DNA of 64,000 bases from a virus (IMGVR_UViG_3300035703_000033:32001-96000); one strand, 5' to 3'; positions 1-19,411 are shown, numbered from the stretch's first letter. The notes: generated by a model not told the origin, from the sequence alone. Numbers and translations: made by a program.

Positions 1-246
1 TCCGCTAAAATGCAGGTGCGTGATACCAAGGGCGGAAGTAAATTAGCTTTTACTCTAACATCCCCTTCTGGTGGAATTACTATTGACGAGCCAAATGGAA
101 AATTGACTATTAAGATCACTCCTACTCAAACCAATAAAATGTTTTATCCTAAATCAGCATATGACATAATGGTAGTAGACTCAAACGGCAATAAAATAAA
201 ATTGCTTGAGGGTTTTATGACACTGAGTAGGAGTGTGACTATTTAA
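1..246 (+). CDS. virion structural/baseplate-type protein, 5'-truncated by window edge
   Basis: Frame is open from base 1 (tcc gct aaa atg); heads the tail-fibre cluster. Confidence 0.5.
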   Translation, partial: SAKMQVRDTKGGSKLAFTLTSPSGGITIDEPNGKLTIKITPTQTNKMFYPKSAYDIMVVDSNGNKIKLLEGFMTLSRSVTI

Positions 247-695: not shown

Positions 696-706
696 GGAGA
701 TAAAAA

Positions 707-1774: not shown

Positions 1775-1781
1775 AATAATA

Positions 1782-2156
1782 ATGGCCAAGTTTAAATCAT
1801 TATTAAATTTAGTAACACTCCAAGCAGATCCAAATTCTGGTTCTGCTGGAGATGTTTACTTTAATACTGTATCAAAAAATTTAAAGATACATAATGGTTT
1901 ATCTTGGGTTGACTTAACACCAGGTTCTTCCGATCCAGCTCCTTTTTATATGCATACACATACTTATGATGGAGATGTTCATACCATTACAATTGATAAC
2001 ATGGTAACTTTTGATGATGACATTAACAATATTGCATCAACAGAAGAACAAATTCCTGCTATAATTGGATTTGACGGCGGAAGTCCAAATTCAATATATG
2101 ACAATGTATCTTATAAAGAACTAACATTGTTAGACGGAGGCGAAATTGGCAACTAA
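1782..2156 (+). CDS. small fibre-associated protein
   Basis: N-terminus resembles that of 707..1774 (GDVYFNT vs GQIYYNT); C-terminal DGG motifs. Confidence 0.5.
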   Translation: MAKFKSLLNLVTLQADPNSGSAGDVYFNTVSKNLKIHNGLSWVDLTPGSSDPAPFYMHTHTYDGDVHTITIDNMVTFDDDINNIASTEEQIPAIIGFDGGSPNSIYDNVSYKELTLLDGGEIGN

Positions 2157-3240: not shown

Positions 3241-3255
3241 TAAGGGGGTTGCAAT

Positions 3256-4800
3256 ATGGCAACAGTAAACAAAAACTTTAGAATTAAAAATGGTTTGGTT
3301 GTTGAGGGATCAACAGCTACCGTAAACGGCGAGGATATCTTAACCAGATCCCAAGCCGATCAATCTTATATAGTCAATTTAATTGGCGGTACAGCAACTT
3401 CACAAAATACACCAGATACTGTTGTTAAAAGAGACGGATCTGGCAACTTTGCTGCAGGAACAATTACAGCAAACCTTACAGGTGATGTAACTGGTACAGT
3501 TTCAAGCATTTCTAACCACGATTCAGATGATTTATCAGAAGGTTCTTTAAACCTATATTTCACAGATGCTCGTGCAAGAGCTGCTCTATCAAGCGGAACA
3601 GGTATAGATTATAACTCATCAACAGGTGTAATAGCTGTTGATAACACAATTGCGACAAAGACATACGCAGATAATGCAGCAGAGTCAGCAGTAAATGCTC
3701 TCGATACAGATGATATCGAAGAGGGAGCATCTAATTTATACTTTACAAATCAGAGAGCGCTTGATGCAACAGCGGCTGCTTATGACGCAGCAGGTTCTGC
3801 TTCAACAGCACAGACTGCAGCACAAGGCTATACAGATTCTCAGCTAGAAGATTATACAACAACAGCACAGCTAGATACAGTTATTGATAATCTAGGATAT
3901 TTAAAGTCAGCAGACCTTACAGGATATGCAACAGAAGGATATGCCGATGGCGCAGCATCTAATGCACAATCAGCAGCAGAAGCAAATGCATCTACATATA
4001 CAGATAATGCCATAAATGCTTTAGATACAGACGATATTGAAGAGGGTACAGTAAATAAGTACTACACAGACACTAGAGTTTTATCATGGCTTTCTGATAA
4101 AGGTGGAACTGGAATTGATATTGACTCTGTAAGTGGTCAAATATCTATAGATAATACAGTTGCAACAACATCTTATGTCGATACAGCAATTAATAATCTT
4201 GTTGATGGAGCTCCAGGACTCCTAGATACTCTAAATGAGATTGCAGCAGCAATTAATGATGATGCAAATTACTTTACAACAGTAACAAATGCAATTAATG
4301 CTAAGCAGAACAACTTAACAGCTGGCGCAAATATTGATATCACAAACGATACAATATCTGTAACTGGTTTAGATACAGATGACGTTGCAGAAGGCACAAA
4401 CCTATATTTCACAGATGCCCGTGCTCGTGATGCAGTAGATGGAACAGACCGCTCATTTACATCTGTAGCAATTAATGAAGTTTCAAAGGAAGTTGCTGCA
4501 ACTACTGGTAATATTGCAACAGCAGCAGCCACAACAGCATATTCTTGGCTAAAGACAGATTATAGAAGCGCCAAGTTTATGGTTAAAATTAAGAATGGCA
4601 CACATACAGAGGTTTCTGAAATTCTCGTAACTCTTGATACTTCTGATAATGTTTATCTAACAGAATACGGAATGTCTTCAACTAGCGGAACATCTCTTGG
4701 AACAATTTCAGCAGATGTCAGCTCAAATGATGTAAGAATCCGTGTAACACCAGCAAACAACAACTCAGAAGTTATTGTAGCTGGAACACTATTAATATAA
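3256..4800 (+). CDS. tail fibre protein with four D(T/S)DDxxEG..NLYFT repeats
   Basis: Repeats visible in the translation; APGLLDTLNEIAAAI fibre motif. Confidence 0.7.
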   Translation: MATVNKNFRIKNGLVVEGSTATVNGEDILTRSQADQSYIVNLIGGTATSQNTPDTVVKRDGSGNFAAGTITANLTGDVTGTVSSISNHDSDDLSEGSLNLYFTDARARAALSSGTGIDYNSSTGVIAVDNTIATKTYADNAAESAVNALDTDDIEEGASNLYFTNQRALDATAAAYDAAGSASTAQTAAQGYTDSQLEDYTTTAQLDTVIDNLGYLKSADLTGYATEGYADGAASNAQSAAEANASTYTDNAINALDTDDIEEGTVNKYYTDTRVLSWLSDKGGTGIDIDSVSGQISIDNTVATTSYVDTAINNLVDGAPGLLDTLNEIAAAINDDANYFTTVTNAINAKQNNLTAGANIDITNDTISVTGLDTDDVAEGTNLYFTDARARDAVDGTDRSFTSVAINEVSKEVAATTGNIATAAATTAYSWLKTDYRSAKFMVKIKNGTHTEVSEILVTLDTSDNVYLTEYGMSSTSGTSLGTISADVSSNDVRIRVTPANNNSEVIVAGTLLI

Positions 4801-4865
4801 TTAAATAAAAGGCTAGGGGAGAGCCAGAAATCTCCCCAAAATCAAATTCGGGGGATAGGGAACTC

Positions 4866-5204
4866 GTGACAACAAACAATAAAGATTTTAAAGTTAAGAA
4901 TGGCCTTGTAGTTGAGGGTAATCAAATAACACTAGGAGATACTCCAGTGGCCTTCAATACCTCCACAAGCAAATTAGAGATTTATATAAATGGCGCTTGG
5001 CAGCCAATAGCATTTACTTCAGATATTCCAGATGTACCAGAAATTACATTTATGGATATTGGATTAGCTATTGACTATAATGGTGATCCAATATATACAG
5101 TTCAGGCTAACGGTGTAGTAACCTCAGCCACAAAATTCGCAGATGGGGGAACTCCATCAACATCTTCTTTTGGTATGACCTTTGACTCAGGTTCTATCAA
5201 TTAA
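4866..5204 (+). CDS. small fibre-associated protein
   Basis: N-terminus NKDFKVKNGLVVEG nearly identical to NKNFRIKNGLVVEG of 3256..4800. Confidence 0.55.
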   Translation: MTTNNKDFKVKNGLVVEGNQITLGDTPVAFNTSTSKLEIYINGAWQPIAFTSDIPDVPEITFMDIGLAIDYNGDPIYTVQANGVVTSATKFADGGTPSTSSFGMTFDSGSIN

Positions 5205-5234
5205 GAAGACAAAATGATATAATAAGGAGTAATT

Positions 5235-7598
5235 ATGGCAACAGTAAGAATTCAACTAAGAAGAGGCACAGCCGCTGAATGGACAGCCACAAACCCTGTC
5301 TTGGCCGCTGGCGAAATGGGTCTGGAGACAGACACTGGCGATTTTAAATTTGGTAATGGTACAGACACATGGAGCAACCTTGCATATTCATTAGGTAATG
5401 CAATAGATGACTACATTCCTTTATCTGAAAAGGGTGTAGCTGACGGAGTTGCTACCCTAGATTCATCAGGTTTAGTACCACTAGCACAGCTTCCAGGGGC
5501 AGCAGCTTTGGATGCAGAGGTAAGCTCAGCAATTTCTGATCATAATTCAGATACCACAAATGTACATGGTATAGCTGACACATCGATATTAGTAACAACA
5601 TCAGGAACACAAACATTAACTTCAAAGAGCTTAACTTCACCAGCTCTTACTGGAACACCTACCGCTCCAACAGCAGTAGTAGGAACAGATACAACTCAAA
5701 TTGCTACAACTGCATTCGTACAAGATGCAATCGAAGCAGTTGTAGGTGCAGCTCCAGCAGCATTAGATACATTGGCTGAAATTGCAACATCTTTAAATGA
5801 TGATGCGGATTTGGCTGGAACATTAACAACATCAATTTCAGAGAAGGTAGCCAAGTCTGGCGATACAATGTCTGGAGCTCTTGATATGGGGTCTAACAAG
5901 GTTACAAATCTTGCAAGTCCTACAACAATTTATGATGCAGCAAATAAGTTTTATGTAGATTCTAGATCAGCAGCAGATGTCGGAGGACACGCAAGCACCA
6001 CAACAAATGTTCATGGAATCGCAGATACTACACAATTAGTAGTGCAGTCTGATGAAAGATTAACAAACGAAAGATATCCTGTTCCTTTATCTGTTACAGA
6101 AGGCAAGATTGCTAATGCTGCTGTTACAGAATCAAAGATTGCAGATAGCTCAGTATCTAATTCAAAGCTTGCAGATGGATCAGTTACTACTGTAAAGATT
6201 GCAGATGATTCTGTTAGCACAGCAAAAATTGCTGATAATGCAATTTCTACAGATAAAATTGCTGATGCTGCTATAACAAATGCTAAAATAGCAGGAAACT
6301 CTATAACTGCTTCTTTAATGCAGGACAATTCAATAGATACAGCTGCAATAGTTGACAGTGCTGTAACTTCAGCTAAAATTGCAATTTCAGCAGTTGAGGA
6401 ATCAAAAATTGCAGATGATGCAGTTTCTACTTCTAAGATTCTTAATTTAGCTGTCACAGAAGATAAAATTAACACATCAGCTGTTACAGAAGGCAAGATT
6501 GCTAATGCTGCTGTTACAGAAAATAAAATCGCAGATGGTTCTGTAACTTCAGCTAAGATTGCAAATGGATCTATAGTTAATGAAGATATTTCAACTACTG
6601 CAGCAATTGCTCAGTCTAAAATTGCAGATTTAACAACAGATCTTGCAGCCAAAGCACTTGATTCAGATCTTGATGCACATATAAATGCAACTACTTCGGT
6701 ACATGGAATTGCAGACACATCTGTGCTTGCAACAGATTCTGATGTAAGTGCTGCACAGACAGCTGCAGAGGCGCATGCAGATTCTGCAGTATCTACACAC
6801 AATTCTGATACAACTTCTGTACATGGAATTTCTGATACTTCTCAGCTAGCATATAAGAATGCTGCAAATCAGACATTTACAGGAAATATGGAAGTTGATG
6901 GAAATCTTGTAGTAGATGGAGACTTTACTGTAAATGGAACAAACTTCTCTGCTTCAGCAACATCAATTGTCATCGAGGACAACATGGTTCAGCTTGCACA
7001 TCAAAATGCTGCAAATACAGTAGACCTTGGTCTTGTAGTTGCATATAATGATGGTTCAGCAAAGCACTCTGGTATTGTAAGAGATGTTTCTGCAGATAAG
7101 TGGAAGCTATTTAAGGGTGTAACAACAGAGCCAACAACCACAGTTGACTTTACACAGGGATCCCTAGATGATCTTCAGGTGAAGAACCTAGATGCTGTTG
7201 CAATTACAGCTACTGGAGCAATTACAGCATCTTCTTCTGGAGTAGTCTTTACAGATGGCACTCAGACAAAAGCTGGAGTTCCGTCTATCACACCAATTGC
7301 AGAAAAGACTGCAAACTATACACTTTCAAGCTTAACAGAAAGAGATACTCTTATTGAGGTAAATCATACAGGAGGAACTGCAGTTACAATTACTGTACCT
7401 TCAGATGCTACTGTAAACTTCCCAGTAGGAACATCAATCGATATTTTAAGAACAAATACTGGAGAAGTAACAATTGCTGGCTCAGGCGCTACAGTGAATG
7501 CTACACCAGGATTAAAGTTAAGAGCTCAGTGGTCAAGCGCAACTCTATTTAAGAGAGCGGCAAACACATGGGTACTATTCGGAGACCTAAAGGCATAA
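5235..7598 (+). CDS. long tail fibre: Mtd-N/hyaluronidase-type N-terminal anchor plus decapeptide repeats
   Basis: IQLRRGTAAEWTATNPVLAAGEMGLETDTG N-terminus; AVTxxKIADG repeats; C-terminal LRAQWSSATLFKR..WVLFGDL domain. Confidence 0.75.
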   Translation: MATVRIQLRRGTAAEWTATNPVLAAGEMGLETDTGDFKFGNGTDTWSNLAYSLGNAIDDYIPLSEKGVADGVATLDSSGLVPLAQLPGAAALDAEVSSAISDHNSDTTNVHGIADTSILVTTSGTQTLTSKSLTSPALTGTPTAPTAVVGTDTTQIATTAFVQDAIEAVVGAAPAALDTLAEIATSLNDDADLAGTLTTSISEKVAKSGDTMSGALDMGSNKVTNLASPTTIYDAANKFYVDSRSAADVGGHASTTTNVHGIADTTQLVVQSDERLTNERYPVPLSVTEGKIANAAVTESKIADSSVSNSKLADGSVTTVKIADDSVSTAKIADNAISTDKIADAAITNAKIAGNSITASLMQDNSIDTAAIVDSAVTSAKIAISAVEESKIADDAVSTSKILNLAVTEDKINTSAVTEGKIANAAVTENKIADGSVTSAKIANGSIVNEDISTTAAIAQSKIADLTTDLAAKALDSDLDAHINATTSVHGIADTSVLATDSDVSAAQTAAEAHADSAVSTHNSDTTSVHGISDTSQLAYKNAANQTFTGNMEVDGNLVVDGDFTVNGTNFSASATSIVIEDNMVQLAHQNAANTVDLGLVVAYNDGSAKHSGIVRDVSADKWKLFKGVTTEPTTTVDFTQGSLDDLQVKNLDAVAITATGAITASSSGVVFTDGTQTKAGVPSITPIAEKTANYTLSSLTERDTLIEVNHTGGTAVTITVPSDATVNFPVGTSIDILRTNTGEVTIAGSGATVNATPGLKLRAQWSSATLFKRAANTWVLFGDLKA
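6091..6630 (+). repeat. 30-bp / 10-aa tandem repeat (VTxxKIAxxA)
   Basis: Period visible in DNA and protein; 6091-6131 is identical to 6481-6521. Confidence 0.85.
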
Positions 7599-7608
7599 GG
7601 AGCAAATA

Positions 7609-8946
7609 ATGGCAATTAATAAAAGATCAGGAACAGGTTCTTCCGCACAGGATAACTTTATCGGACCAAATCCAGTTACTGGATTAACAGCAACAGATGT
7701 TGGTTCTGGAAGAGCATACAACGATGGTAGAATTGATTTGTCTTGGACAAACCCGTCTACTGGAAATACTCCAACAGGGTATAGAATTATTCGTGGTGGA
7801 ACTGAAATAGCAACAGTAGCTCATCCTAATAATACATACTCAAATACTGGGCTTTCTTCAGCCACTTCATATTCGTATGTAGTTCGTGCATATGATGATT
7901 ATGCTACAGCAGCAGATTCAAATACTGCTAGTGCTACAGCAACAACAGTTCCAGCTACAATGAGTGCTCCAAGTGCTACAGCTGGAGTTGATAAGGACAC
8001 ATTGTCTTGGACAGCACCAGCAAATGGTGGTTCAGCAATTACACTATATAGATGGACATCAAGCGACGGAAAGACTGGAACATCTACTGGAACATCAGTT
8101 GATATTTCTCAAGAAGCAAACACTGCACAAACATATCAAGTTAGAGCAGAGAATGCTAACGGAGCAGGAGTGTATTCTGGAAATTCAAATCAGGTTACAA
8201 CCCAGGCCCCAAGCTTCTTCGGTCCTCCAAGCTTCTTCGCCCCTCCAGGGTTCTTTGCCCCTCCAGGGTTCTTCGCCCCTCCAGGGTTCTTCGCCCCTCC
8301 AGGGTTCTTTGCCCCTCCAGGGTTCTTCGCCCCTCCAGGGTTCTTCGCCCCTCCAGGGTTCTTCGCCCCTCCAGGGTTCTTTTCTCCACCAAGCTTTTGG
8401 AAGTCTGTTGGAATTAACACTTTGATTAGAACACCTGGCGGAATGGTTTCTGCAGGACAGTTGGAAATTGGAGATGAGGTAATTGGTTTACGTATACCAG
8501 GTATACCAGATAACTATTGGTTACTTGATGACGGTTCATATGGCTCATACTCAGATTTTGTAATATCAGAAGAGCAATTAAATAATGCAGAAGAGACAAT
8601 TGTAACTGTTACAGGTAAGAGACTTCATGAGAATGCTGGAGCTGCAGCTGTTAATGGTGATATTTATACTATTAACCACTACATTCTAGCCAAGAGAAAT
8701 GGTGAAATTAAGTCTTTGAATGTTAAGGATTTATTGTCAGATGATCTTATATATAACTATCAGACAAAAGATTTTGTTCCAATAGAATCTCTTGAGATAA
8801 ATGAAGAAATTACAATTCAATCATATTCTATAAACGTAGAGCCATGGGACTTCTACTTTACAGAAAACGGTTTAACCTTTGATATGCAGGCGCTATCAGA
8901 GTCTCTGTCTGGATCTGATGATCCAGATGGTTCTGGCCCCCTATAA
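7609..8946 (+). CDS. 2x FN3 + (FFAPPG)n repeat + C-terminal Hint-like domain protein
   Basis: FN3 motifs (LSWTNP..GYRI; GLSSATSYSYVVRAY; YQVRAENANG); Pro-rich repeat; Hint blocks SVGINTLIRTPGG..LEIGDEV, TINH, YSINVEP..YFTENG. Confidence 0.8.
   Translation: MAINKRSGTGSSAQDNFIGPNPVTGLTATDVGSGRAYNDGRIDLSWTNPSTGNTPTGYRIIRGGTEIATVAHPNNTYSNTGLSSATSYSYVVRAYDDYATAADSNTASATATTVPATMSAPSATAGVDKDTLSWTAPANGGSAITLYRWTSSDGKTGTSTGTSVDISQEANTAQTYQVRAENANGAGVYSGNSNQVTTQAPSFFGPPSFFAPPGFFAPPGFFAPPGFFAPPGFFAPPGFFAPPGFFAPPGFFAPPGFFSPPSFWKSVGINTLIRTPGGMVSAGQLEIGDEVIGLRIPGIPDNYWLLDDGSYGSYSDFVISEEQLNNAEETIVTVTGKRLHENAGAAAVNGDIYTINHYILAKRNGEIKSLNVKDLLSDDLIYNYQTKDFVPIESLEINEEITIQSYSINVEPWDFYFTENGLTFDMQALSESLSGSDDPDGSGPL
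8215..8394 (+). repeat. 18-bp tandem repeat: 8 x ttcttYgcccctccaggg (FFAPPG) flanked by FFGPPS and FFSPPS
   Basis: Counted directly in the DNA; core 8233-8376. Confidence 0.97.
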
Positions 8947-8953
8947 AATATAG

Positions 8954-9493
8954 GTGAAATTTAAAGTAACAAGTACTGGTCAGGAGATAGAGAAATCTAT
9001 CTCCTATCAGTCTTTCCCAGAAGAGTTATATAATGAGGGTATATGGGGTCATTTTGCATTTATAGAAGATAAAGAAATGAATATTCGTGTTATATGTTCT
9101 GCTTATAACAATGATAGATATTCTCCAGGTACTGTTGTCGTATCGAATAAAATATTTAATGATTTTCCAATTGCTCAAAGTGCATGGAATATAAGTAATA
9201 AAATTAGTAGAATGTATGTTGATCCGTTTTATAGAAATAAAAAGGTTGCAACTTATAGTGTTATAACAAATGATATGTTAGCTAGAAAAATGGGTTATGA
9301 AATATGGTCTAATATATACGGAGAAAAAGGCGGTACTATAGCAGGCGACCAACTTTATAATAAAATATACGATTTAGGTTTTGAGGTAAAGAAAGCACAG
9401 ATAGACCTAAACGATATTTTTCAATATAGAAATTTTTCACACCCAATACATTACATAGATAAGAGACCAGTTTATGATGAATCAAGTCTATAG
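8954..9493 (+). CDS. GNAT-like acyltransferase
   Basis: RMYVDPFYRNKKVAT resembles GNAT motif A (V.P.YR..G.A). Confidence 0.5.
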   Translation: MKFKVTSTGQEIEKSISYQSFPEELYNEGIWGHFAFIEDKEMNIRVICSAYNNDRYSPGTVVVSNKIFNDFPIAQSAWNISNKISRMYVDPFYRNKKVATYSVITNDMLARKMGYEIWSNIYGEKGGTIAGDQLYNKIYDLGFEVKKAQIDLNDIFQYRNFSHPIHYIDKRPVYDESSL

Positions 9494-10049
9494 CAAAACC
9501 AAATTTTTAAAGAAAGAAGTCAATTTTGACTTTGATATAAAAAATATAAAAGATATGTCTTTTAAAAAAGATGAGTTATTTTTTGTTGATAATGGAAATC
9601 TTAATAAAAATAACGAAATTGTTTATAAATCAAAAAATATATTTACTATATACAGCAGAGACATCCACAGCCTATATAAAAGTATATCTAGTCTATTAGA
9701 TGAATCTTGTGATTTATATGAAATAAAAAAAGATATACAGAACTATATGATTTATGGCAAAATTTCAGAGTATGGTGAACATAATAGAGGAATATGGTAT
9801 GATTTTCCAGGAATAAATATTCCATACTTACACGGGTTTTTCTTCTTTGACTCCAGCTATGAGGTTAACTTTAAAAATCAAAATAATTTAGTTAAAGAAT
9901 TAATAAATACCAATACAATTATTATCAATAAGCCGACAGATTTAATAAACATTAAATCAGAAAAAGAGTCAGAGGTAATTGAATTCTATATAGTCCCTAT
10001 TGATATGTTAAAACATAATGAACCAGGCGTATGGGTTCCAATATTATAA
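9474..10049 (+). CDS. degenerate 2OG-Fe(II) oxygenase-like protein
   Basis: WYDFPG..LHGFFFFD pattern where HxD..SGxYY is expected; island context. Confidence 0.35.
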   Translation: MMNQVYSKTKFLKKEVNFDFDIKNIKDMSFKKDELFFVDNGNLNKNNEIVYKSKNIFTIYSRDIHSLYKSISSLLDESCDLYEIKKDIQNYMIYGKISEYGEHNRGIWYDFPGINIPYLHGFFFFDSSYEVNFKNQNNLVKELINTNTIIINKPTDLINIKSEKESEVIEFYIVPIDMLKHNEPGVWVPIL

Positions 10050-10064
10050 AACAAATGATATAAT
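10036..10064 (+). promoter_or_regulatory. sigma70-type promoter for the oxygenase array
   Basis: TTCCAA-17 bp-TATAAT with extended TG (TGATATAAT). Confidence 0.55.
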
Positions 10065-10084
10065 CATATCCAAGAGAAAGAGGC

Positions 10085-10786
10085 GTGATGTTAGAAAATG
10101 CAGAGTACCTAGCAACTGGAATAGTTGTATATAGAGATGTTTTTAAAAAGGAACATAACTATGTAGAGAGATTAGAAAAGGCTTTAGGGTCAGTAGAAGA
10201 AAATAGATACGGTTGGAAGCCAGGGTATACTGGCTACGGAGCAAAAAATCTTAATTATAGAGATTGTTTTGATTTTAAGATTAAGCATAATGAAGACGGC
10301 TCTCTAAGCGCACATATGGACTGTATTAAAAAAGAAGATCAAAACGAAACAGACAAAGATTTAATTAGAATTTGGGATGATGCATATTATGCACAGGTTC
10401 CACCAGTTGACGACTATAGAAGTATGTTTAGCCTGGCACCATTAAAATATTGGGAATCTTTTAATTTTATTAAGTATGGACCAGGACAGCATTTCCAGGT
10501 ACATTCAGATCATGGATATTCTTATACGTGTGTTCTTTCTTCAGTTGGGTATTTAAATGATGATTATGAAGGCGGAGAGCTTTATTTTGATAAGCTTAAC
10601 CTAAAGATTAAGCCAAAAGCAGGAGATCTTTATCTATTCCCATCTTCATATGTATACTCTCATGCTGCAATGCCAGTCACCTCTGGTACTAAGTACTCTA
10701 TAGTTACAATGTTAGATTATTTAGAAACAGCACATACTCCAGAATATAGAAACCTGGAAGCAAGATACTCTAAAAGCCTTCTTTAA
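10085..10786 (+). CDS. 2OG-Fe(II) oxygenase, prolyl-4-hydroxylase-like
   Basis: HSD; YLNDDYEGGEL; H..PVTSGTKY. Confidence 0.9.
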   Translation: MMLENAEYLATGIVVYRDVFKKEHNYVERLEKALGSVEENRYGWKPGYTGYGAKNLNYRDCFDFKIKHNEDGSLSAHMDCIKKEDQNETDKDLIRIWDDAYYAQVPPVDDYRSMFSLAPLKYWESFNFIKYGPGQHFQVHSDHGYSYTCVLSSVGYLNDDYEGGELYFDKLNLKIKPKAGDLYLFPSSYVYSHAAMPVTSGTKYSIVTMLDYLETAHTPEYRNLEARYSKSLL

Positions 10787-11481
10787 TGTATTCTATAACA
10801 GCCTATAATATAGGAGGTTTAGCTACCATTAGTCAGTCTCCAGTAAAAAGAGATTGGATGGAAGATACATATGATAAGCATGCCTATAATTGTTTCCCAG
10901 TAACAATTACAAATTCATTAGGGTGGAGCATATCTTTTCCAGAAGAAATTTCTTTTATTTGGGATGGCATATCAGATAGTTCAGCAGACCACGTTAAAGT
11001 TTTAAGTGGAGAAAAGTATGTTTCAACTAGAAGAGCTAATGGAACCATAAGCTTTAATTCTGGATTTGGTTTTAAAACACAAAATGACTTAAGCTTGTTA
11101 TGCATGCCAACACCAAACCAGTTTATAAGGGGTGCTCAATGTTTTACTACTTTAATATCAACATCTTTTTTTAATGGAGACTTCCCTATAGTTTGGAAAA
11201 TTACTGAGCCTATGATAAAAATAGTAATTCCTGCAAACACGCCAGTTGCTAATATTATTCCTATATCTTTAACAGAATTACAAAATTCTGAAATAAATTT
11301 TGAACCAGTAAGCAATATGCCATCCAGTAAATGTCCACCAGAATTTGCTATAAAAGCTGTTGAGAAAGCATACCAGACTGGCGGATGGACAAATTTTTAT
11401 AGAGATGCAGTAGATGCATGCGGGAACAGTATTGGGTCGCATGAAATAAAATCAATAAGATTGAAGGTAAATAATGCCTAA
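10786..11481 (+). CDS. DUF6065-like protein
   Basis: RDWM..AYNCFPVTITNSLGW signature; IPANTPVANIIP. Confidence 0.65.
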   Translation: MYSITAYNIGGLATISQSPVKRDWMEDTYDKHAYNCFPVTITNSLGWSISFPEEISFIWDGISDSSADHVKVLSGEKYVSTRRANGTISFNSGFGFKTQNDLSLLCMPTPNQFIRGAQCFTTLISTSFFNGDFPIVWKITEPMIKIVIPANTPVANIIPISLTELQNSEINFEPVSNMPSSKCPPEFAIKAVEKAYQTGGWTNFYRDAVDACGNSIGSHEIKSIRLKVNNA

Positions 11482-12187
11482 AATAACATTTCATTCAAAT
11501 AAAACTTATAATCAACCAGGACATGAATTAAATCCTAAACCAGCAAAGAAGAGCGTTCCTCAATGGTTTTCCGAATCAAGCAGGTACTGGTTTCCAGAAG
11601 TAAAAGACTCTCTTTCATTTAAAGCTTGCCCAGCATTAGTAGATGCATTTCTTGCAGGTTATGTTTTAAAAACTCCATGCGACATATATTTCCAAAAAGA
11701 GTCTAGCTCTGATGTTTTTAAGCACACTGATATATTTAAAGTTTATAAAGAACCAGGATATGATGATTTTTGTTGTTCAAGACCAGATATGCCAGGGTTT
11801 CCCAAGCCACACGGATTTGATAAACATTTTCATTGGTTTCCTAATTGGATGCCAGGGCTTGAGCCAGGCTACAGCGCTTTATATGTTCATCCATTAAATC
11901 GTTTTGATCTACCGTTCATCACCGTCTCTGGTATAATTGATAACGATAAGATGAATACCCCTGGTTTAATGCCTTTCTTCCTTAAAGAAGGTTTTGAAGG
12001 TCTGATTCCAAAGGGAACTCCATTTGTTCAGATAATTCCATTTAAAAGAGAAGATTGGGAATCAGAAGAGCAGATGTATTCCATAGAAGAGATATTTGAA
12101 AGACATAATTATCAAGCAAATAAGTTTAGAGTTCCAGAGGGCGGGGCTTATAAGAAAAAAGTTTGGTCAAGAAAGAGGTATGATTAA
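11474..12187 (+). CDS. DUF6065-related protein (possible dUTPase-like fold)
   Basis: KACPALVDAFLAGY; HPLNRFDLPF; SGIIDND; IPKGTPFVQIIPF. Confidence 0.55.
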   Translation: MPKITFHSNKTYNQPGHELNPKPAKKSVPQWFSESSRYWFPEVKDSLSFKACPALVDAFLAGYVLKTPCDIYFQKESSSDVFKHTDIFKVYKEPGYDDFCCSRPDMPGFPKPHGFDKHFHWFPNWMPGLEPGYSALYVHPLNRFDLPFITVSGIIDNDKMNTPGLMPFFLKEGFEGLIPKGTPFVQIIPFKREDWESEEQMYSIEEIFERHNYQANKFRVPEGGAYKKKVWSRKRYD

Positions 12188-12906
12188 TGAATATGAAACG
12201 TTGGGACACTAGCGGTAATTTAGCTAACTTTAATGCTAAGTCTATAACTCCATCTGGATTTTTTGGAGATTCAGATAAAAATATAGTTGAGGTTGAAGAT
12301 TTTATTACAGAAGAAGAAAATAATATATTTTTAGAGTTTGCAAGAAAAAATTCTTCTTTTGATGAAACACCAACAGAGTTTAATGAAAATGGCAATCTTA
12401 TTTATGACGAAAGACCGTGGGTAAATAGAGTAGCAACTGGAGAGACTCTATTGAAGAGTGGACCACACGTGATACCAGTTCTTACACATATGGTTACAAG
12501 ATTTCAAAAAATAATTGAAGATTTTTTTGATGTAGAAGTTACTCCTACAGGACCAGCAATTGTTAGGTGGCCAGTTGGAGCAAGACAAGAGCCACATGCA
12601 GATAAAGAGTTGCATGAGGGCCCAGATGCAGGAAAACCAAATTCTTTCCCGTGGTATGATATTGGAACTGTTTTTTATTTTAATGATGATTATGAGGGTG
12701 GAGAATTATATTTTCCAAAACAAGGTGTTGAGTTTAAGCCAAAAGCACGAGCTGCATATTTTTTCCCAGGCGATATGAACTATATTCATGGAGTAAGGCC
12801 AATAACAAAGGGATGTAGATACACTGCTCCATATTTTTGGACAATAAATAAGTTACCAGAAAAATATAATGGCCCAAAGGAGTTTAATTATGTGCCACAT
12901 AACTAA
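12187..12906 (+). CDS. 2OG-Fe(II) oxygenase, prolyl-4-hydroxylase-like
   Basis: HAD; YFNDDYEGGEL; HGVRPITKGCRY. Confidence 0.9.
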   Translation: MNMKRWDTSGNLANFNAKSITPSGFFGDSDKNIVEVEDFITEEENNIFLEFARKNSSFDETPTEFNENGNLIYDERPWVNRVATGETLLKSGPHVIPVLTHMVTRFQKIIEDFFDVEVTPTGPAIVRWPVGARQEPHADKELHEGPDAGKPNSFPWYDIGTVFYFNDDYEGGELYFPKQGVEFKPKARAAYFFPGDMNYIHGVRPITKGCRYTAPYFWTINKLPEKYNGPKEFNYVPHN

Positions 12907-13615
12907 ACATAAGGAAGAATGTTTTACAATTGAGCATTTTTTAACAGAAGAAGAATGTAAAGCTATTATTTCGTATACGGAGTGGTTAGCTAGCAATAAC
13001 ATTTTAGAGTGGAATCAAATATCGTTTTATGATTCATTTGCAATGGGCTTTTGGGAAGAGGATCCAACTGGTGGCTGTGAGTTATTTGGACTTCCCAAAA
13101 ATTATTTTCATGGTGTTTTAAAACAAAAAATAAAAGATGCTTGTGAAAATGCTTTAGGAAAAGATTTAGCTGAGGTTAGTTATCATGCTCAAAAATGGAA
13201 AGATGGAGCATATGCATCATTTCATTCCGATAACTCTGACGAGCATGGAAACCCTTCAGAGTTTGAAAGAAGTAAGTATGCTGCATTTATCTATCTTAAT
13301 GAAGACTTTAAAGGTGGAAATTTAAATTTTAAACATCACGATGTAAACATAAAACCAAAAGCTGGTATGCTTGCAGTTTTTGCAGGCGGGTATACAAATG
13401 AACATGAAGTTACAAAAGTTCATGGAGGTACTCGTTATACCGTAGGATCATTTTGGGATAACGCAGATGCTGTTTATACTGAAGAGCAAATTAAAGAAAG
13501 AGAAGAAAGATTAAAGAAAACTAGAGCTGAGCAAGATTTAACTTATCAGCAGTGGGCAAAGCAAAAAGAATTGGGAATAACTCAAGACTATGTTGGAAAA
13601 TACGGTGAAGTATGA
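12869..13615 (+). CDS. 2OG-Fe(II) oxygenase, prolyl-4-hydroxylase-like
   Basis: HSD; YLNEDFKGGNL; HEVTKVHGGTRY; start position uncertain. Confidence 0.9.
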   Translation: MAQRSLIMCHITKHKEECFTIEHFLTEEECKAIISYTEWLASNNILEWNQISFYDSFAMGFWEEDPTGGCELFGLPKNYFHGVLKQKIKDACENALGKDLAEVSYHAQKWKDGAYASFHSDNSDEHGNPSEFERSKYAAFIYLNEDFKGGNLNFKHHDVNIKPKAGMLAVFAGGYTNEHEVTKVHGGTRYTVGSFWDNADAVYTEEQIKEREERLKKTRAEQDLTYQQWAKQKELGITQDYVGKYGEV

Positions 13616-14469
13616 ATAGAATAGAAATTTATCCAAGAGTAGTTGTGTATAAAAATACGCTACCTAGATGGAAAGAGTATGTAGATCTTTTAAAAAAGTC
13701 TGAATCAGAGCCACCAAGATACTACTTCAAGGATTGGGAAGATTGGTATGGTTTTGGAAAAATGATGAATCTATCAATGAATAATCCAAATGTTTCATAC
13801 AATATTGATTCTGATGATGAATATGCAAAACTACAGCAAGATTTTTTACAAGATGTAACAGATGCCTATTATAATGTTACAGCAGATTATGTAAAAACAT
13901 ACGGCATCTCTTTACCAAATTGGGTCAATAATGGTATATCGATTTGCAAATATTGGGAAAGCCCTAAGCAAAATGAAATGGCAATGCACTATCATACAGA
14001 TTATGTTGGCGCAAATGCAGATGCCCCAGGTAAAAAATTTGCTATTACTTGTACAATTTATATTAATGACGATTATGATGGCGGAGGACTATCATTTCTA
14101 AGGGAGGATACTGGTGATGTTATTGACTATAAGCCAGAGGCTGGAGATATAGTTGTATTCCCATCAGGAGATCCTATTACTGGAGCTTCTCATTATTTCC
14201 ACGGCGTAGATAGAGTCGATAATGGAGAAAAGTATTTTATAAGATGTTTTTGGTCATATGAGTTTGAAGGTACAAAAGAGTGGCATGAAGGTGTTGAAAA
14301 GTATGGAAAAGATATATGGGAAGATATGCAGCTTGAAAAAATGAAAGAGGATATAAAGTCTGGTAAATGGCATAGATATCTTGTCATGCCTGGTGAGGAA
14401 GACCCAAAGAAAGAAAGGTCTACCCCATTCTTTTTAAGGGATAAAGATGCTTATAAAAAAATTAGATGA
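13612..14469 (+). CDS. 2OG-Fe(II) oxygenase, prolyl-4-hydroxylase-like
   Basis: HTD; YINDDYDGGGL; HGVDRVDNGEKY. Confidence 0.9.
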   Translation: MNRIEIYPRVVVYKNTLPRWKEYVDLLKKSESEPPRYYFKDWEDWYGFGKMMNLSMNNPNVSYNIDSDDEYAKLQQDFLQDVTDAYYNVTADYVKTYGISLPNWVNNGISICKYWESPKQNEMAMHYHTDYVGANADAPGKKFAITCTIYINDDYDGGGLSFLREDTGDVIDYKPEAGDIVVFPSGDPITGASHYFHGVDRVDNGEKYFIRCFWSYEFEGTKEWHEGVEKYGKDIWEDMQLEKMKEDIKSGKWHRYLVMPGEEDPKKERSTPFFLRDKDAYKKIR

Positions 14470-15061
14470 GAATATTATCTATTATGAAAATGTATTAGAT
14501 AACCCATATGAATTTATTGAAAAAATAGAAAGTTTAGATATATCTAATAATAATTCAAGCCATATTAGCAAGTGGGAAAAGTGGAGTGCAAGTAATGCTG
14601 ATCAGCAGTACGGCATTTCTAAAAATGGTAGATTTTCTAATATGCATTACAGCACTGCGGAAGATATAGAAACCTCATTAATTTCGTATAAAATTAAAGC
14701 AATATCTGATTTATGTTTTGCTAACTATAAAGCTAACACTGGAGTGGATATGCTTAAGTTACCAGATTACTTTAGTATTAGGAAGTATGATACTGGAGCA
14801 GACATGGGAAAGCACGTGGATTCAGAGGATCCAACAGATAAGTCTCACCCAGTAGTTTCTGGAGTTCTTTATTTAAATGATAATTACGAGGGTGGAGAAA
14901 TTTACTTTCCAGAACAAGAAATTAAAATAAAGCCAAAAGCTGGAAGTATGATCATGTTTCCATCCTATAGACCATACTTTCATCACCCATTAGCAATTAC
15001 TAAAGGAAATAAATACATGATTCCATTTTTCTGGTATCCATTAGAAACGGTTTGGGAATAA
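14447..15061 (+). CDS. 2OG-Fe(II) oxygenase, prolyl-4-hydroxylase-like
   Basis: HVD; YLNDNYEGGEI; HHPLAITKGNKY. Confidence 0.9.
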   Translation: MLIKKLDENIIYYENVLDNPYEFIEKIESLDISNNNSSHISKWEKWSASNADQQYGISKNGRFSNMHYSTAEDIETSLISYKIKAISDLCFANYKANTGVDMLKLPDYFSIRKYDTGADMGKHVDSEDPTDKSHPVVSGVLYLNDNYEGGEIYFPEQEIKIKPKAGSMIMFPSYRPYFHHPLAITKGNKYMIPFFWYPLETVWE

Positions 15062-15068
15062 ATGTATA

Positions 15069-15728
15069 ATGAAAGCAAAACAAAATTTTTGGTCAACTCT
15101 ATATGAAAGGTCACAAACAAAAATGATGTACTTACCCAATGTTCTTGGAGATAGCTGTGTTTATTTTAGAAATACTATCTCTGAACCACAAAAATTAATA
15201 GAATTTATTGAAGAGTGCGAAAAAGATCAATCAACACATAAGTACCTAACCAGCTGGTCAGAGATGACTGACTCTATTATGTTTAAAAAGTTTTTGCTTG
15301 AAGAAAGCGATATATCAAAAAGGAATAAACAAAAGCTTCTTTATATATATAATAGCTTTAAGGCTGGGATAGACTATTGTAAAGAACATTATTCTAATTT
15401 TGCTAAACAAGAAACATCAGATATAAAGCCTTTATATCTATTTAAGTCTAAGCCACTATCAGAAGGAGAAAGAGATCAGGAGTACTCTTTGCCAGATAGC
15501 TCACAATCTATTTCTGTTTATTTGATGATGAATACAGAAGCTGAAGGTAAGGCATTCTGTTTAAATAAAGAAAAGTCTATATATATCTACCCAGAGCCAT
15601 GGAGTATTGTTATGGTTCCAGATAATCTTTCACACTCAGAAGGCATCAATGCTAATAGTGAGTTGTATTATTTAAAGACAAAGTTTGAGCTAGGGGCAGA
15701 AAAGCTGCAATGCAGTAATCTGCTATAA
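15069..15728 (+). CDS. degenerate 2OG-Fe(II) oxygenase paralogue (no HxD)
   Basis: N-terminus like its neighbours (YFRNTISEPQKLIEFIE); SVYLMMN..PEPWSIVMVP..H; HxD absent. Confidence 0.5.
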   Translation: MKAKQNFWSTLYERSQTKMMYLPNVLGDSCVYFRNTISEPQKLIEFIEECEKDQSTHKYLTSWSEMTDSIMFKKFLLEESDISKRNKQKLLYIYNSFKAGIDYCKEHYSNFAKQETSDIKPLYLFKSKPLSEGERDQEYSLPDSSQSISVYLMMNTEAEGKAFCLNKEKSIYIYPEPWSIVMVPDNLSHSEGINANSELYYLKTKFELGAEKLQCSNLL

Positions 15729-15729
15729 T
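15721..15729 (+). promoter_or_regulatory. extended -10 promoter, leaderless
   Basis: TGCTATAAT, 6 nt before ATG 15736; no SD. Confidence 0.6.
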
Positions 15730-15735
15730 TAAATA

Positions 15736-17421
15736 ATGTCATATTTAGCATCAGTACTCAAAGACTACCCAGTGGGATTCTGGCCACTTTCTTCAAGTGC
15801 AGAGGATAAGTCTGGATGCGGAAATGACGGGGTTGTAAGTGGCACACATCAGTTCGGCAAAAATTCTTTAATACCGTACTCTGGTGAATCAACAAGAATA
15901 GCTGGATCATCGTATATATCAATACCGCTAGATAAAGATTATTATTCTTCTTCTGTTTTGCCAGCAATTGCAAATAGCTCAAGTTCAACAAAAGAGTTTA
16001 CTATAGAGCTATGGTTTAAGCCAGAGTCTGATTTCTTACAAGAGTCTCCTTTGTTTGCTGACGTACTAAACGGCACTGGAATTTTTTATCAAAACGGTAA
16101 TATAATATTTAAAATAGAAGACGTTTCGTTAGAGTATACATTAAGCAATATAAATAAATCTTTATATATCGCATGTATTTATGGTGTTAATAGTATGTCA
16201 ATATATGTTGACGGAGAAATTGTTGCTACAAAAAATACAGACGGTTTTAAATTTGAGGCAGAGGGTGTAGATTTTCAGGTTGGCCCAGTCGTTGGACCGT
16301 CGGATTCATTTTTAATTAATGGAATTTCTGTTTACAGGTATGCATTAAGCTCAGATCAAATATATGGAAGATTTTCTAACTTATATAATATACCTCCAAT
16401 ACAAATAGCAGATCCAAATAATGGTTCATTATTTGAGATTAAAAATAAGGCATATGGTAGAAAATTTACATTTAGTTATCCAATCGATAAAGACTGGTCA
16501 GAAATAGCAGAAAGCCCTGTAAGGCGCAATGAAGGTTACGGGTACATAGAACTAAGCCAAACTGATGGCGAGGTCTCTAAAGAGCTTATAGACGTTCTAT
16601 CAATACCATCTATGGAAGAGTACAACCACTCAGTAATAGAATGGGAGGGAGACAATGGAGTATCAATCTATATATCTCAAGATAACTCTACTTTCAATGA
16701 ATGCAAAAATGGTCTTCCTCTTCCAATATCTGATTTTACAAAAAGTGTTATTTATTTAAAGATAAAATTTACTTCAAGTAATGCTCAGCGCTTTAATCCA
16801 AGATTACATAAATTAAATATATCTTTCTTTAAAGATGTAAGAATTTATTCAGAAAATAGCGCCAGCTATATTGCAAAGTCAACGGGCGGAAGCCATGATT
16901 TTGGTTTCACGTGGAACAATAAGCCAATACTCTCACAGTCTAAATATAACGGTCTACGGGCAGAGGCTAAATTCAGTTTATACACAGACAGAGATGTCCA
17001 TACCCTAGAAACCTTTTATACACCAGATTCTCTTGAGGCAGGATCATTATTTGATCAGCTTTCATGGAATGGGGCGGGAACACTAAGTAATCCCAATATC
17101 CTAGCCCTATATATCAACGGAGAAGACAAGACATCAGAAACATCAGTCTCTGGCTTATTTGAGGTAGGACAATTACACCATGTTGTAGTAGTCCTATCAG
17201 ACTCAATTACTGAAGAAATAGTATTTAATGATGGATCAAATGAGGCCCTATATCAGTATATAACCATATATGAGAGCCAAATGGATGCAGTTACTGCACA
17301 GGCTCATTATGAGATGTATGTGGATAGTGTCTCTACTATTGCCGTCGGCGGGTCACTGTCAATGACAGAAAATTCAATAAACTACTATGATAATGATTGG
17401 GTAGTGATACAAAATATTTAA
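15736..17421 (+). CDS. LamG/concanavalin-A-like domain minor structural protein
   Basis: PVGFWPL; FTIELWFK; SIYVDG; VYRYALSSDQI; second HHVVVV module. Confidence 0.7.
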   Translation: MSYLASVLKDYPVGFWPLSSSAEDKSGCGNDGVVSGTHQFGKNSLIPYSGESTRIAGSSYISIPLDKDYYSSSVLPAIANSSSSTKEFTIELWFKPESDFLQESPLFADVLNGTGIFYQNGNIIFKIEDVSLEYTLSNINKSLYIACIYGVNSMSIYVDGEIVATKNTDGFKFEAEGVDFQVGPVVGPSDSFLINGISVYRYALSSDQIYGRFSNLYNIPPIQIADPNNGSLFEIKNKAYGRKFTFSYPIDKDWSEIAESPVRRNEGYGYIELSQTDGEVSKELIDVLSIPSMEEYNHSVIEWEGDNGVSIYISQDNSTFNECKNGLPLPISDFTKSVIYLKIKFTSSNAQRFNPRLHKLNISFFKDVRIYSENSASYIAKSTGGSHDFGFTWNNKPILSQSKYNGLRAEAKFSLYTDRDVHTLETFYTPDSLEAGSLFDQLSWNGAGTLSNPNILALYINGEDKTSETSVSGLFEVGQLHHVVVVLSDSITEEIVFNDGSNEALYQYITIYESQMDAVTAQAHYEMYVDSVSTIAVGGSLSMTENSINYYDNDWVVIQNI

Positions 17422-17484: not shown

Positions 17485-17826
17485 ATGGATATCAAAAGAA
17501 CTGGATTTAAAGTTAATGACCACGAGTCAACGCTTGGCATATACGTTTGGAAAATGCCAGATGGAAGATGGATTGGCGACGACGATGGAAATTTTCTTTC
17601 TATAACCTCAAAAGAAGGTAATAGAGAAAGAATGAACTTGCTTGCTGACGCAGTTAGATCATACGGTATTTATGAAGGACAACCTCACTTTTTATCTGGT
17701 CGTAGAAAGATTGATGACGAAGAATTTGAGTATCAACAGCAGAGATTGAAATGGGGTCTAACTCCAGATCCTCTTGATATTGGTGTATACAAGGATAGTC
17801 TTAAGGAGTTAAACGGTGGCAAATAA
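17485..17826 (+). CDS. hypothetical protein preceding portal
   Basis: Intact ORF behind a promoter, overlapping the portal start. Confidence 0.6.
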   Translation: MDIKRTGFKVNDHESTLGIYVWKMPDGRWIGDDDGNFLSITSKEGNRERMNLLADAVRSYGIYEGQPHFLSGRRKIDDEEFEYQQQRLKWGLTPDPLDIGVYKDSLKELNGGK

Positions 17827-19411
17827 TATGATGGAATTTGAAGATGAAAACAACTCTGTCGAAGAGATTGAGATTTCAAATACAGCAGACTGGATGAAGT
17901 TCTCTTCTCCAGTTGTGCAAACAAGCAATGATCCATTTAAGATTGAAAATGAAGAAATTTTAAAGGTATCAGGAATGTCTCCTACTTTCAGAAGAAAAGT
18001 AAGTAGAGATTTGCAAAAACGTTTTACTGGAATTGATGGAGCACAGACACAGCAAAATCTTTTACAGCAGGCAGTCACTGGCTATGCAATGTTTGATTTG
18101 GTTGAGCCACCATATAACCTTGAATACCTATCTTCTATTTATGAAATATCTCCATATAACTACGCAGCTATTAATGCGAAGGTGGCAAATATTGTAGGAT
18201 TAGGTTTTGATTTTATTGAAACAAGAAAAACAAATGATGCTCTTGATGAAATTGCAGATGAGAAGCAATTAGAAAGAGCACGACGAAAGCTAAGCAGAAT
18301 TAGACAAGATCTACATGAGTGGCTTGAAGATTGCAATGATGAAGAAACATTTAAAGAAACATTAATTAAGTTTTATACCGACGTTGAGTCTACAGGAAAT
18401 GGATATCTTGAAATCGGAAGAACTACATCTGGAAAGATTGGATATATTGGACATATCCCATCCAAGACAATGCGTGTAAGAAGATTACGTGATGGTTTTA
18501 TTCAGTTGCTTTATGGCAAGGCTGTGTACTTTAGAAACTTTGGCGATCAGGAAACACCAAATCCTATAGCTGGTGGACTTGATAGACCAAATGAAATTAT
18601 TCATTTGAAGAAGTATACCCCTAAGAATAACTACTATGGAATTCCAGATATTATTGCTGCTCAAAATGCAATGGCTGGAAATGAGTTTGCAGGAAAGTAC
18701 AACCTAGATTATTTTGAAAATAAGGCAGTTCCAAGATATATTATTACTGTTAAGGGTGCAAAGCTTTCATCAGAGTCAGAGCGTAAGTTGCTTGAATTTT
18801 TCCAAGTAGGATTGAAGGGTAAAAACCACAGATCTCTGTACATACCTCTTCCAGCAGATTCTCCAGACTCAAAGGTTGAATTTAAAATGGACCCAATTGA
18901 GGCGGGGTCTCAAGAGTCATCATTTAATATTTATCGTACATCAAATAGAGATGAAATATTAATGGCTCATAGAACTCCTATTAATAAGATAGGAACACCA
19001 GCTGGTGTTAATTTGGCAGCAGCTAGAGATGCCGATAAAACATTTAAAGAGCAGGTTTGCAGACCAGCTCAAGAAAATTTAGAAAAGAAATTAAATAAAA
19101 TTATTGAAGAAATGACTGATGCCTTGAAATTAAAATTCAATGAATTAACCTTGACAGATGAGGATACTCAGTCAAAAATTGATGAAAGATATTTAAGATT
19201 CCAGGTAATGACACCTAATGAAATTAGATTAAGAATGGGTCTTGTGCCAAGAGAAGGCGGAGATAAACCAGTAGATTTAGCAGCCCAGGCTGCTGAGGTT
19301 AAAGCTCAGGCACTTCAGACCAGAACTAGAGACCAGGAAAGATCCTCTAACTCCCCAGATATTTCGGGGGATGGTAGAAATGCAAAGGGAGATGGAAGAC
19401 AAGTTGAGTAG
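17816..19411 (+). CDS. portal protein (PBSX/HK97-like)
   Basis: GNGYLEI; EIIHLK..YYGIPD; YFENKAVP; MTPNEIR; position before protease and capsid. Confidence 0.92.
   Translation: MANNMMEFEDENNSVEEIEISNTADWMKFSSPVVQTSNDPFKIENEEILKVSGMSPTFRRKVSRDLQKRFTGIDGAQTQQNLLQQAVTGYAMFDLVEPPYNLEYLSSIYEISPYNYAAINAKVANIVGLGFDFIETRKTNDALDEIADEKQLERARRKLSRIRQDLHEWLEDCNDEETFKETLIKFYTDVESTGNGYLEIGRTTSGKIGYIGHIPSKTMRVRRLRDGFIQLLYGKAVYFRNFGDQETPNPIAGGLDRPNEIIHLKKYTPKNNYYGIPDIIAAQNAMAGNEFAGKYNLDYFENKAVPRYIITVKGAKLSSESERKLLEFFQVGLKGKNHRSLYIPLPADSPDSKVEFKMDPIEAGSQESSFNIYRTSNRDEILMAHRTPINKIGTPAGVNLAAARDADKTFKEQVCRPAQENLEKKLNKIIEEMTDALKLKFNELTLTDEDTQSKIDERYLRFQVMTPNEIRLRMGLVPREGGDKPVDLAAQAAEVKAQALQTRTRDQERSSNSPDISGDGRNAKGDGRQVE

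Follow-up and report, generated by a model that had tools for sequence, protein, structure and literature searches.

What connects a phage fibre-cluster gene that ends in an intein-like domain with the row of putative hydroxylase genes that directly follows it? This question is raised by positions 7,609 to 15,728 of a 64,000-nucleotide stretch of viral DNA (IMGVR_UViG_3300035703_000033:32001-96000, in the following called the window), in which protein P0001 carries fibronectin type III (FN3) domains, a repeat rich in Phe and Pro, and a C-terminal Hint domain. A first-pass annotation, made from the sequence alone, had proposed that the genes behind it form a dedicated enzyme island that tailors the repeat. 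Our analysis describes a gene module that is real and not previously described, in which Hint autoprocessing of the fibre-module protein is well supported by sequence and modelled fold, and in which the link between enzymes and substrate is plausible, as a candidate only. A literature search found no paper that deals with phage fibres ending in a Hint domain or with this set of genes. The repeat-Hint protein is laid out as follows:

7609-8946, + strand: fibre-cluster protein P0001, 445 amino acids (aa), with FN3, an FN3-like stretch, ten FFxPPG/S units and a Ser1 Hint domain
8215-8394, + strand: repeat tract, residues 203-262, ten FF[GAS]PP[GS] units (FFGPPS, eight FFAPPG, FFSPPS)
8401-8406, + strand: predicted autoprocessing junction Lys265/Ser266, placed by conserved residues
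8404-8946, + strand: Hint domain of bacterial intein-like (BIL) type, 180 residues, ending in ...LTFD plus a 20-residue tail

Single-sequence searches of Pfam and the Protein Data Bank (PDB) did not recognise the Hint domain. Searching 1.8 billion cluster representatives with phmmer yielded 92 relatives, in all of which (proteins of 150-1100 aa) the domain is found at the extreme C-terminus. An AlphaFold2 model built with a 68-relative alignment reached a mean predicted local distance difference test (pLDDT) of 89.5 and a predicted template modelling score (pTM) of 0.84. The best Foldseek match of this model was the C. thermocellum BIL domain 2lwy (E 6e-8), followed by the Tetrahymena BIL2 domain 6y75, dozens of inteins and Hedgehog 1at0; 52 PDB matches were obtained at E<=0.001, and all those listed are intein, BIL or Hedgehog domains. 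By sequence, the family profile matches 2lwy as well (E 2e-4), and 3 of the 68 relatives reach the Pfam family Intein_splicing. Altogether, model and profile confirm a predicted Hint fold with BIL domains as its nearest kin.

The residues around the junction allow this assignment to be narrowed down. Among 98 distinct family genes, the +1 residue is Ser in 97 and Cys in one (Ser266 in the window), and the -1 residue is Lys in 86. The block B signature Thr-x-x-His is present as T354-I-N-H357 (His357 at nucleotides 8677-8679); its His is invariant in 68 sequences, and near homologues carry [TS]xxH. The domain lacks both the terminal His-Asn and the C-extein of inteins and A-type BIL domains, the family consensus being VHD and the window protein ending with its 20-residue tail, and splicing is therefore excluded. 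The sterol-recognition region of Hedgehog proteins is likewise absent, with only a low-confidence tail in its place (pLDDT 54-55, model residues 171-186). Because the C-terminal domain is a Ser1 Hint, N-terminal self-cleavage at Lys265/Ser266 is to be expected from established Hint chemistry (PMC7765530), and the Hint-dependent maturation put forward in the first-pass annotation stands as a prediction.

Among known systems, B-type BIL domains (Amitai 2003, Dassa 2004, reviewed in PMC7765530) come closest: they share the Hint fold, the N-terminal nucleophile, the TxxH motif, the missing intein C-terminal motif and the occurrence in variable surface-type proteins, N-terminal cleavage is expected for them too, and 2lwy is the best match by both structure and profile. 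The present family differs in having Ser instead of Cys at +1, a conserved Lys at -1, an aromatic/Pro/Gly repeat that always precedes the domain, an invariably extreme C-terminal position without C-flank, a conserved terminal block CEPYDxFFTExMLVHD, phage encoding and fixed partner genes. In the case of Hedgehog 1at0, a fold match, a C-terminal Hint domain also cuts off the N-terminal functional part via an ester intermediate, whereas here about 20 residues without a sterol-recognition region follow the Hint domain, and Ser replaces Cys. In the Tetrahymena BUBL BIL2 domain (6y75, 6tmm), the second-best fold match, resolution of the (thio)ester by a lysine conjugates the upstream domain to a target (PMC8616854). 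That domain lies internally between two ubiquitin-like domains and uses Cys1 plus Asn; a transfer of this kind would be hypothetical here.

Two phage systems resemble the protein at the level of architecture. Peptidase S74 chaperone domains of phage tail spikes and fibres cleave themselves off at a conserved Ser after assisting assembly. As C-terminal self-cleaving fibre domains they are the functional analogy we favour, although fold and chemistry (Hint) are unrelated here and Pfam gave no S74 match. The second is gp108 of Dickeya phage vB_DsoM_AD1 with its Erwinia jumbo-phage homologues: an annotated virion structural protein of a fibre cluster, with collagen Gly-X-Y repeats and a C-terminal Hint domain. 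It differs by Cys1 and a terminal His-Asn, by 24-27% identity, and by the absence of GNAT-like, B (see below), oxygenase or DUF6065 neighbours. Since these Hint fibre proteins lack the partner genes, Hint-terminated fibres are a wider theme that is independent of oxygenases. A tblastn search of GenBank phages with P0001 and P0047 gave no Hint match.

The part upstream of the junction had been read in the first-pass annotation as two FN3 domains followed by ten FFxPPx units. The ten units and one Pfam fn3 domain (residues 38-98, E 2e-7) hold; the second FN3-like stretch (residues ~117-200) is visible by eye only and was not called by Pfam. At the DNA level, an 18-bp unit is repeated in tandem 9.3 times at 8215-8381 (94% matches; Tandem Repeats Finder), and its copy number varies among near homologues (2-10 repeat units). 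Logan contigs from four metagenome runs all stop or restart inside this repeat (window 8262-8353), and because short-read contigs break there, the unit counts, ten here and 2-10 in relatives, are unreliable and may depend on assembly. An aromatic/Pro/Gly low-complexity repeat lies directly N-terminal of the junction in every full-length family member, in types that include FFxPPG, FGFTP, GAF, GNY, PGFN and poly-Pro, among others. The relatives' N-terminal parts carry fn3 (19/68), PASTA (17/68) or Ig domains in Pfam and, folded, reach ~950 aa; they are adhesin modules, typical of virion surface proteins.

With about ten -Pro-Gly- sites, the repeat invites comparison with collagen. In the window repeat (8215-8394), G, A or S occupies every third residue, a collagen-like periodicity; the sequence runs G-F-F-A-P-P with Ala at alternate triplets, and thus departs from the collagen rule of Gly at every third residue. 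Perfect (GFF-GPP)n occurs in some relatives, and (GAF)n or (GNY)n in other clades. The Pfam Collagen model matched none of 68 relatives, and since further clades have a period of 4 or 5 (PGFN, FGFTP), the collagen-like periodicity is not a rule of the family. Two variations on the gene itself were also seen: locus L018 (2299-4471) has an extra Hint-terminated gene, in which a DTIDTI repeat precedes a Cys at +1 and immediately downstream of which an oxygenase is encoded, and L074, L087 and L090 have tandem FGFTP-repeat Hint genes of 914-944 aa and 452-464 aa.

Directly downstream of the Hint gene follow two genes of which homologues are found almost wherever the family occurs:

8954-9493, + strand: gene A, GNAT-like, 179 aa, the near-constant gene directly downstream of the Hint gene
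9474-10049, + strand: gene B, 191 aa, a second near-constant partner without family name

To compare loci, we used viral contigs carrying the repeat-Hint family, of which there are at least 262; 80 distant loci of the 262 found were kept, with Hint domains 28-39% identical to that of the window, and were scanned with hidden Markov models (HMMs) from the island genes. Presence was counted over the 82 distinct loci whose downstream DNA extends for 6 kb or more. A was present in 74 of these and B in 78, compared with 46 for a PF13640-type oxygenase and 48 for DUF6065; at least one of the four was found in 81. A reverse search from A gave 54 loci, and wherever the DNA reaches, the Hint gene lies immediately upstream of A. 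The commonest architectures were A-O-B-O, A-B-D, A-B and A-B-O-D-D-O-O-O-O-o (O, oxygenase; D, DUF6065; o, dead copy). Since A and B are near-constant and the rest is variable, the constant core is Hint-A-B, and oxygenases and DUF6065 genes are add-ons. Outside viral contigs, a scan of 185,579 GTDB species genomes gave as sole Hint-family match a 9.6-kb contig of a metagenome-assembled genome (JBBRXZ010000043.1, locus L156), binned as Candidatus Saccharimonadales and probably phage DNA.

In the case of A, all 50 best structural matches of the model were GNAT-fold acyl or aminoacyl transferases, at Z scores of only 5.0-5.9. Its profile found nothing significant in the PDB (AAC(2') at E 1.2), and one A relative matches Pfam Acetyltransf_1 (E 0.0016). 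The GNAT-like reading thus has moderate support. For B, no Pfam or PDB profile match was obtained (28 family members were run through Pfam). Distant B-family members carry WH[DE]H...GHPH (HxH...H), a motif absent from the window copy, and Atlas gave a lead toward 2-oxoglutarate (2OG)-oxygenase clusters (PF13759/PF13640). Alignment of A and B by hhalign against the oxygenases, DUF6065 and each other returned nothing (B versus oxygenases <5%). B is thus no more than a possible degenerate oxygenase, as which it had been described before.

The remainder of the island consists of the following genes:

10085-10786, + strand: 2OG-Fe(II) oxygenase 1 of prolyl 4-hydroxylase (P4H) type; PF13640 E 1.2e-15, B. 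anthracis P4H E 1.3e-6, HxD...H and Lys intact
10786-11481, + strand: DUF6065 protein a; PF19541 E 5.8e-28, 98.4 bits against a cut-off of 26.6
11474-12187, + strand: DUF6065-like protein b; phrog_7084 E 4.6e-31, Atlas 0.98 to DUF6065 clusters, profile match
12187-12906, + strand: 2OG-Fe(II) oxygenase 2, intact by PF13640 and motifs
12869-13615, + strand: 2OG-Fe(II) oxygenase 3, intact by PF13640 and motifs
13612-14469, + strand: 2OG-Fe(II) oxygenase 4, intact by PF13640 and motifs
14447-15061, + strand: 2OG-Fe(II) oxygenase 5, intact by PF13640 and motifs
15069-15728, + strand: diverged oxygenase-like protein without HxD...H ligands, aligned by hhalign to the 14447 family

This bears out the nine co-oriented, mostly overlapping genes plus a GNAT-like ORF that had been described behind P0001, ten co-oriented genes in all, and with them the five intact oxygenases. 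All five score 30-58.7 bits against PF13640 (curated cut-off 27) and are mutual paralogues (hhalign 96-99%). The iron triad of His, Asp and His (H140, D142, H193) is invariant across 16 oxygenase members, and the 2OG-binding basic residue is kept as K/R in a G-x-[KR]-Y motif. The nearest solved relatives of the 16-member profile are P3H1 (2e-13) and the B. anthracis P4H (2e-12), with the PBCV-1 P4H, lysyl hydroxylase LH3 and PHD2 as further ones; TET-like enzymes are marginal (E 0.003-0.006). This kinship places the array enzymes in the branch of protein prolyl/lysyl hydroxylases, with catalytic residues intact and activity predicted. The gene at 15069-15728 aligns to the 14447 family (hhalign 86%, E 5.6e-6, 155 columns) without HxD, and is probably a diverged, inactive copy; of the two degenerate oxygenases proposed originally, it is the one that was upheld.

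DUF6065 membership, also part of the earlier description, is confirmed by profile for 10786 and supported for 11474, which has no Pfam match of its own and is tied to the family through phrog_7084, Atlas and profile. The DUF6065 profile found nothing significant among PDB sequences, and a literature search found no paper naming the family. The whole array is found in the same order in 19 close relatives. In one sub-clade (L005, also L011-L014), an extra 229-aa gene stands inside the oxygenase array (L005:14021-14710) and a different 197-aa gene (L005:16232-16825) replaces the dead oxygenase copy; neither matches the island HMMs.

Two observations elsewhere in the genome bear on possible substrates. 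A scan of all its open reading frames (ORFs) found Pro-rich tracts in only two proteins, P0001 and a PA14 protein of 678 aa, which has an (E/T/S)P tract of ~80 aa, begins with a signal-like segment and ends in a hydrophobic anchor. Both adjoin PF13640 genes, the immediate upstream neighbour of the PA14 protein being an intact oxygenase (L157:5005-7841 = G000:106504-109340, outside the window). By a rough estimate, the chance that both Pro-rich proteins lie within three genes of an oxygenase is ~5%, which is suggestive, not decisive. Two genes further upstream of that oxygenase is a PF11397 'Glycosyltransferase (GlcNAc)' gene (E 1.4e-21) that recurs in 3/5 relatives checked and whose product has no PDB sequence match. 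PF11397 is presumably the GT60 family of polypeptide and Skp1-hydroxyproline N-acetylglucosamine (GlcNAc) transferases such as Gnt1. The surrounding stretch (L157:120-4947, G000:101619-106446) holds a carbamoyltransferase, a weak oxygenase-like ORF, the PF11397 gene and Hsp20, a cyanophage-style auxiliary set in a phage with a Streptomyces-phage-like portal.

The comparison with known P4Hs follows the same lines. The array enzymes share Pfam family and catalytic residues with those of B. anthracis (3itq/5hv0), PBCV-1 (5c5t) and the Skp1 PhyA-Gnt1 pathway, in which hydroxylation is followed by GlcNAc addition, a step that the PF11397 gene parallels (PMC3515798). They differ from these in being five paralogues in a row with DUF6065 partners, and in having a substrate that is only proposed.

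The genomic setting is that of a late structural region. The window is taken from a 109.6-kb IMG/VR viral contig (bases 32001-96000; estimated completeness 92%) and has a G+C content of ~35%. Fibre-like genes (PHROG tail-fibre families) span 246-7598; the last of them, a tail fibre at 5235-7598, combines an Mtd_N domain with an extended series, at residues ~286-470, of 'xSKIADxAVTx'-type repeats of 11 residues each. The P0001 gene closes the fibre-like run, and from 7609 to 17421 consecutive genes overlap or are spaced by 7-35 nt. Scans for promoters and terminators gave signals no better than shuffled sequence. The array ends ahead of the portal with the following gene:

15736-17421, + strand: LamG/concanavalin-like protein, 561 aa; PF13385 E 1.6e-12

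It is the most variable gene of the module (28-98% identity among relatives) and likely a receptor-binding protein. A small conserved ORF and the portal gene (17816-19411) come next. The portal is 59% identical to those of Stanwilliamsviridae Streptomyces phages, which have no such array upstream of it and have ~50% G+C compared with 35% here. The lineage comprises ~100-kb freshwater siphophages, distant kin of Stanwilliamsviridae. Portal likeness and the PASTA domains of 17/68 Hint relatives, which are peptidoglycan-binding, hint that the freshwater host is Gram-positive and perhaps a low-GC actinobacterium. Near-identical DNA was found in metagenomes of 8 studies (freshwater, aquatic, sediment, subsurface, soil), one of which is possibly the source of this DNA itself; no RNA dataset is listed among the sequencing runs that hold it. 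A megablast search of the island against GenBank phages gave no match.

How could these elements act together? We consider it quite likely that the Hint domain undergoes an N-to-O acyl shift at Lys265/Ser266 and then removes itself, which would leave a mature FN3-FN3-(FFxPPG)n-SFWK protein, in the way that C-terminal autocleaving domains mature other phage fibres. A and B would be the constant maturation partners of the repeat-Hint protein, and that self-removal and this partnership form one functional unit is probable, with somewhat less assurance. Collagen-type P4Hs act on X-Pro-Gly, and both -Pro-Gly- and Pro-rich repeats are established P4H targets. The oxygenases could be lineage-variable accessory enzymes that hydroxylate Pro in the repeat, at its -Pro-Gly- sites, and probably in the other Pro-rich protein as well, a proposal that we make tentatively. 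Hydroxylation might then make a polyproline-II or collagen-like stalk stiffer or more stable, or provide O-glycosylation sites for the GlcNAc-transferase-like enzyme. Taken as a whole, our working interpretation, held at slightly short of an even balance, is that a module of the late operon serves to mature and tailor a protein of the virion surface. The hydroxylated and possibly glycosylated polymer envisaged in the first-pass annotation is compatible with the P4H-branch enzymes, the ~ten Pro-Gly sites and the PF11397 gene; its suggestions of Phe hydroxylation and acylation found no support.

Several observations weigh against this interpretation. As regards A, its model is weak (pLDDT 59). 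As regards the oxygenases, their presence switches at least 8 times on the Hint-domain tree, mostly without a change in Pro content, which itself changes twice (DUF6065 presence changes 6 times). For Pro the tree offers only 2 independent contrasts, which gives no power to a test of covariation between repeat composition and enzyme set, a check proposed at the outset. One descriptive point is in favour: PF13640 genes are never adjacent to Pro-free (GAF)n repeats. On the other side, one (GAF)n phage encodes four of them ~40 kb away from its Hint gene, repeats very rich in Pro are also found where A and B stand without an adjacent oxygenase (L146-L152), and two complete relatives have Hint-A-B and, in a search of the whole record, no PF13640 gene anywhere. 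Furthermore, upstream fibre genes (w10-w5235 homologues) are shared in 34-66 of the 80 loci and are in the distant loci often more identical than A and B. All repeat-Hint loci found belong to one syntenic phage group, so that co-occurrence is confounded by descent: the gene set does stay together across a deep lineage, yet its adjacency may partly reflect inheritance and perhaps not function.

The explanation that gains most from these points is that oxygenases and DUF6065 proteins are general auxiliary enzymes unrelated to the repeat-Hint protein, the fibre-portal junction being merely a permissive late-operon spot; we regard this as rather unlikely, though by no means negligible. Their targets would be host proteins (as for bacterial PHDs on EF-Tu), small molecules, 2OG pools or nucleic acids. 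Apart from the repeated gain and loss and the relatives without any PF13640 gene, it draws on the further copies in the genome, which has eight PF13640 matches and three DUF6065 genes in total:

57919-59763, + strand: second oxygenase locus of the replication/recombination module, with an oxygenase (57919-58779), a 100-aa ORF and a DUF6065 gene (59071-59763; 37.9 bits)

This pair sits between RecA (56809) and a PD-(D/E)XK nuclease (60338), with Pol III alpha (52976), MazG (56438) and RuvC (61373) in the same module. Oxygenase and DUF6065 genes apparently move together, independently of the Hint gene, and this position favours a general auxiliary role. The DUF6065 motif G-[IV]-ID-[TS]-D recalls dUTPase motif III by eye only, and the dUTPase Pfam model finds nothing in the genome even at E 10. 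T4-like cyanophages likewise have several PF13640-type genes per genome, for which DNA repair or 2OG drawdown has been proposed (PMC3037559), and the present genome also carries Hsp20 and carbamoyltransferase genes of cyanophage style. The cyanophages are myoviruses in which the repeat-Hint family was not detected (tblastn, GenBank phages), whereas here the array lies inside the fibre module. In view of all this, tailoring 'dedicated' to the repeat is at most a possibility. Against a purely auxiliary role speak the nearest solved relatives, which are protein prolyl/lysyl hydroxylases with TET-like enzymes only marginal, the oxygenase neighbours of both Pro-rich proteins, the polypeptide GlcNAc-transferase-like gene, and the core-gene-like conservation of the array in close relatives (65-92% identity).

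A different fate of the Hint intermediate is improbable in our judgement. In this case a nucleophile from outside would resolve the Ser1 ester at Lys265/Ser266, A (and B) would serve as the transferase, and the hydroxylated stalk with its FN3/PASTA adhesin would be ligated through its new C-terminus to a virion protein, a small amine or a lipid. GNAT enzymes normally take acyl groups from thioesters; a protein ester would, if this were true, be a new kind of donor for them, and the reaction an ATP-independent, Hedgehog-/BUBL-like ligation for virion assembly.

Slightly less credible than ester transfer is that the oxygenases act on other virion proteins of this region, for instance the LamG receptor-binding protein or the upstream fibres, and not on the repeat. 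The array does sit between two host-recognition gene sets, with the hypervariable LamG gene nearest downstream, but Pro-rich or Gly-X-Y tracts are absent from the upstream fibres, and the structural region holds no other Pro-rich tract. Finally, the logic of ribosomally synthesised and post-translationally modified peptides, which the first-pass annotation had invoked, in which the repeat would be the core peptide, modified by the enzymes and then excised and set free as a small bioactive compound, is very improbable: a substrate beside its enzymes, a self-cleaving C-terminal domain and variable enzyme sets would suit it, but the gene belongs to the fibre cluster, its 'precursor' bears a folded part of adhesin type (FN3, PASTA or Ig domains) that can reach ~950 aa, there is no leader/core arrangement or second cut site upstream of the repeat, and family scans found no protease, exporter/transporter or immunity gene in the cluster.

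As to the wider interest of the proposed module, post-translational chemistry on phage virion proteins has been little explored. If the proposal is correct, a widespread group of phages from freshwater would make a fibre or whisker that contains hydroxyproline, is perhaps glycosylated and is matured by an intein-like domain. The multi-copy 2OG oxygenases of aquatic phages would thereby gain a concrete, testable substrate. In addition, new protein tools for self-cleavage or ligation might be derived from the compact Ser1 C-terminal Hint family together with its fixed GNAT-like partner.

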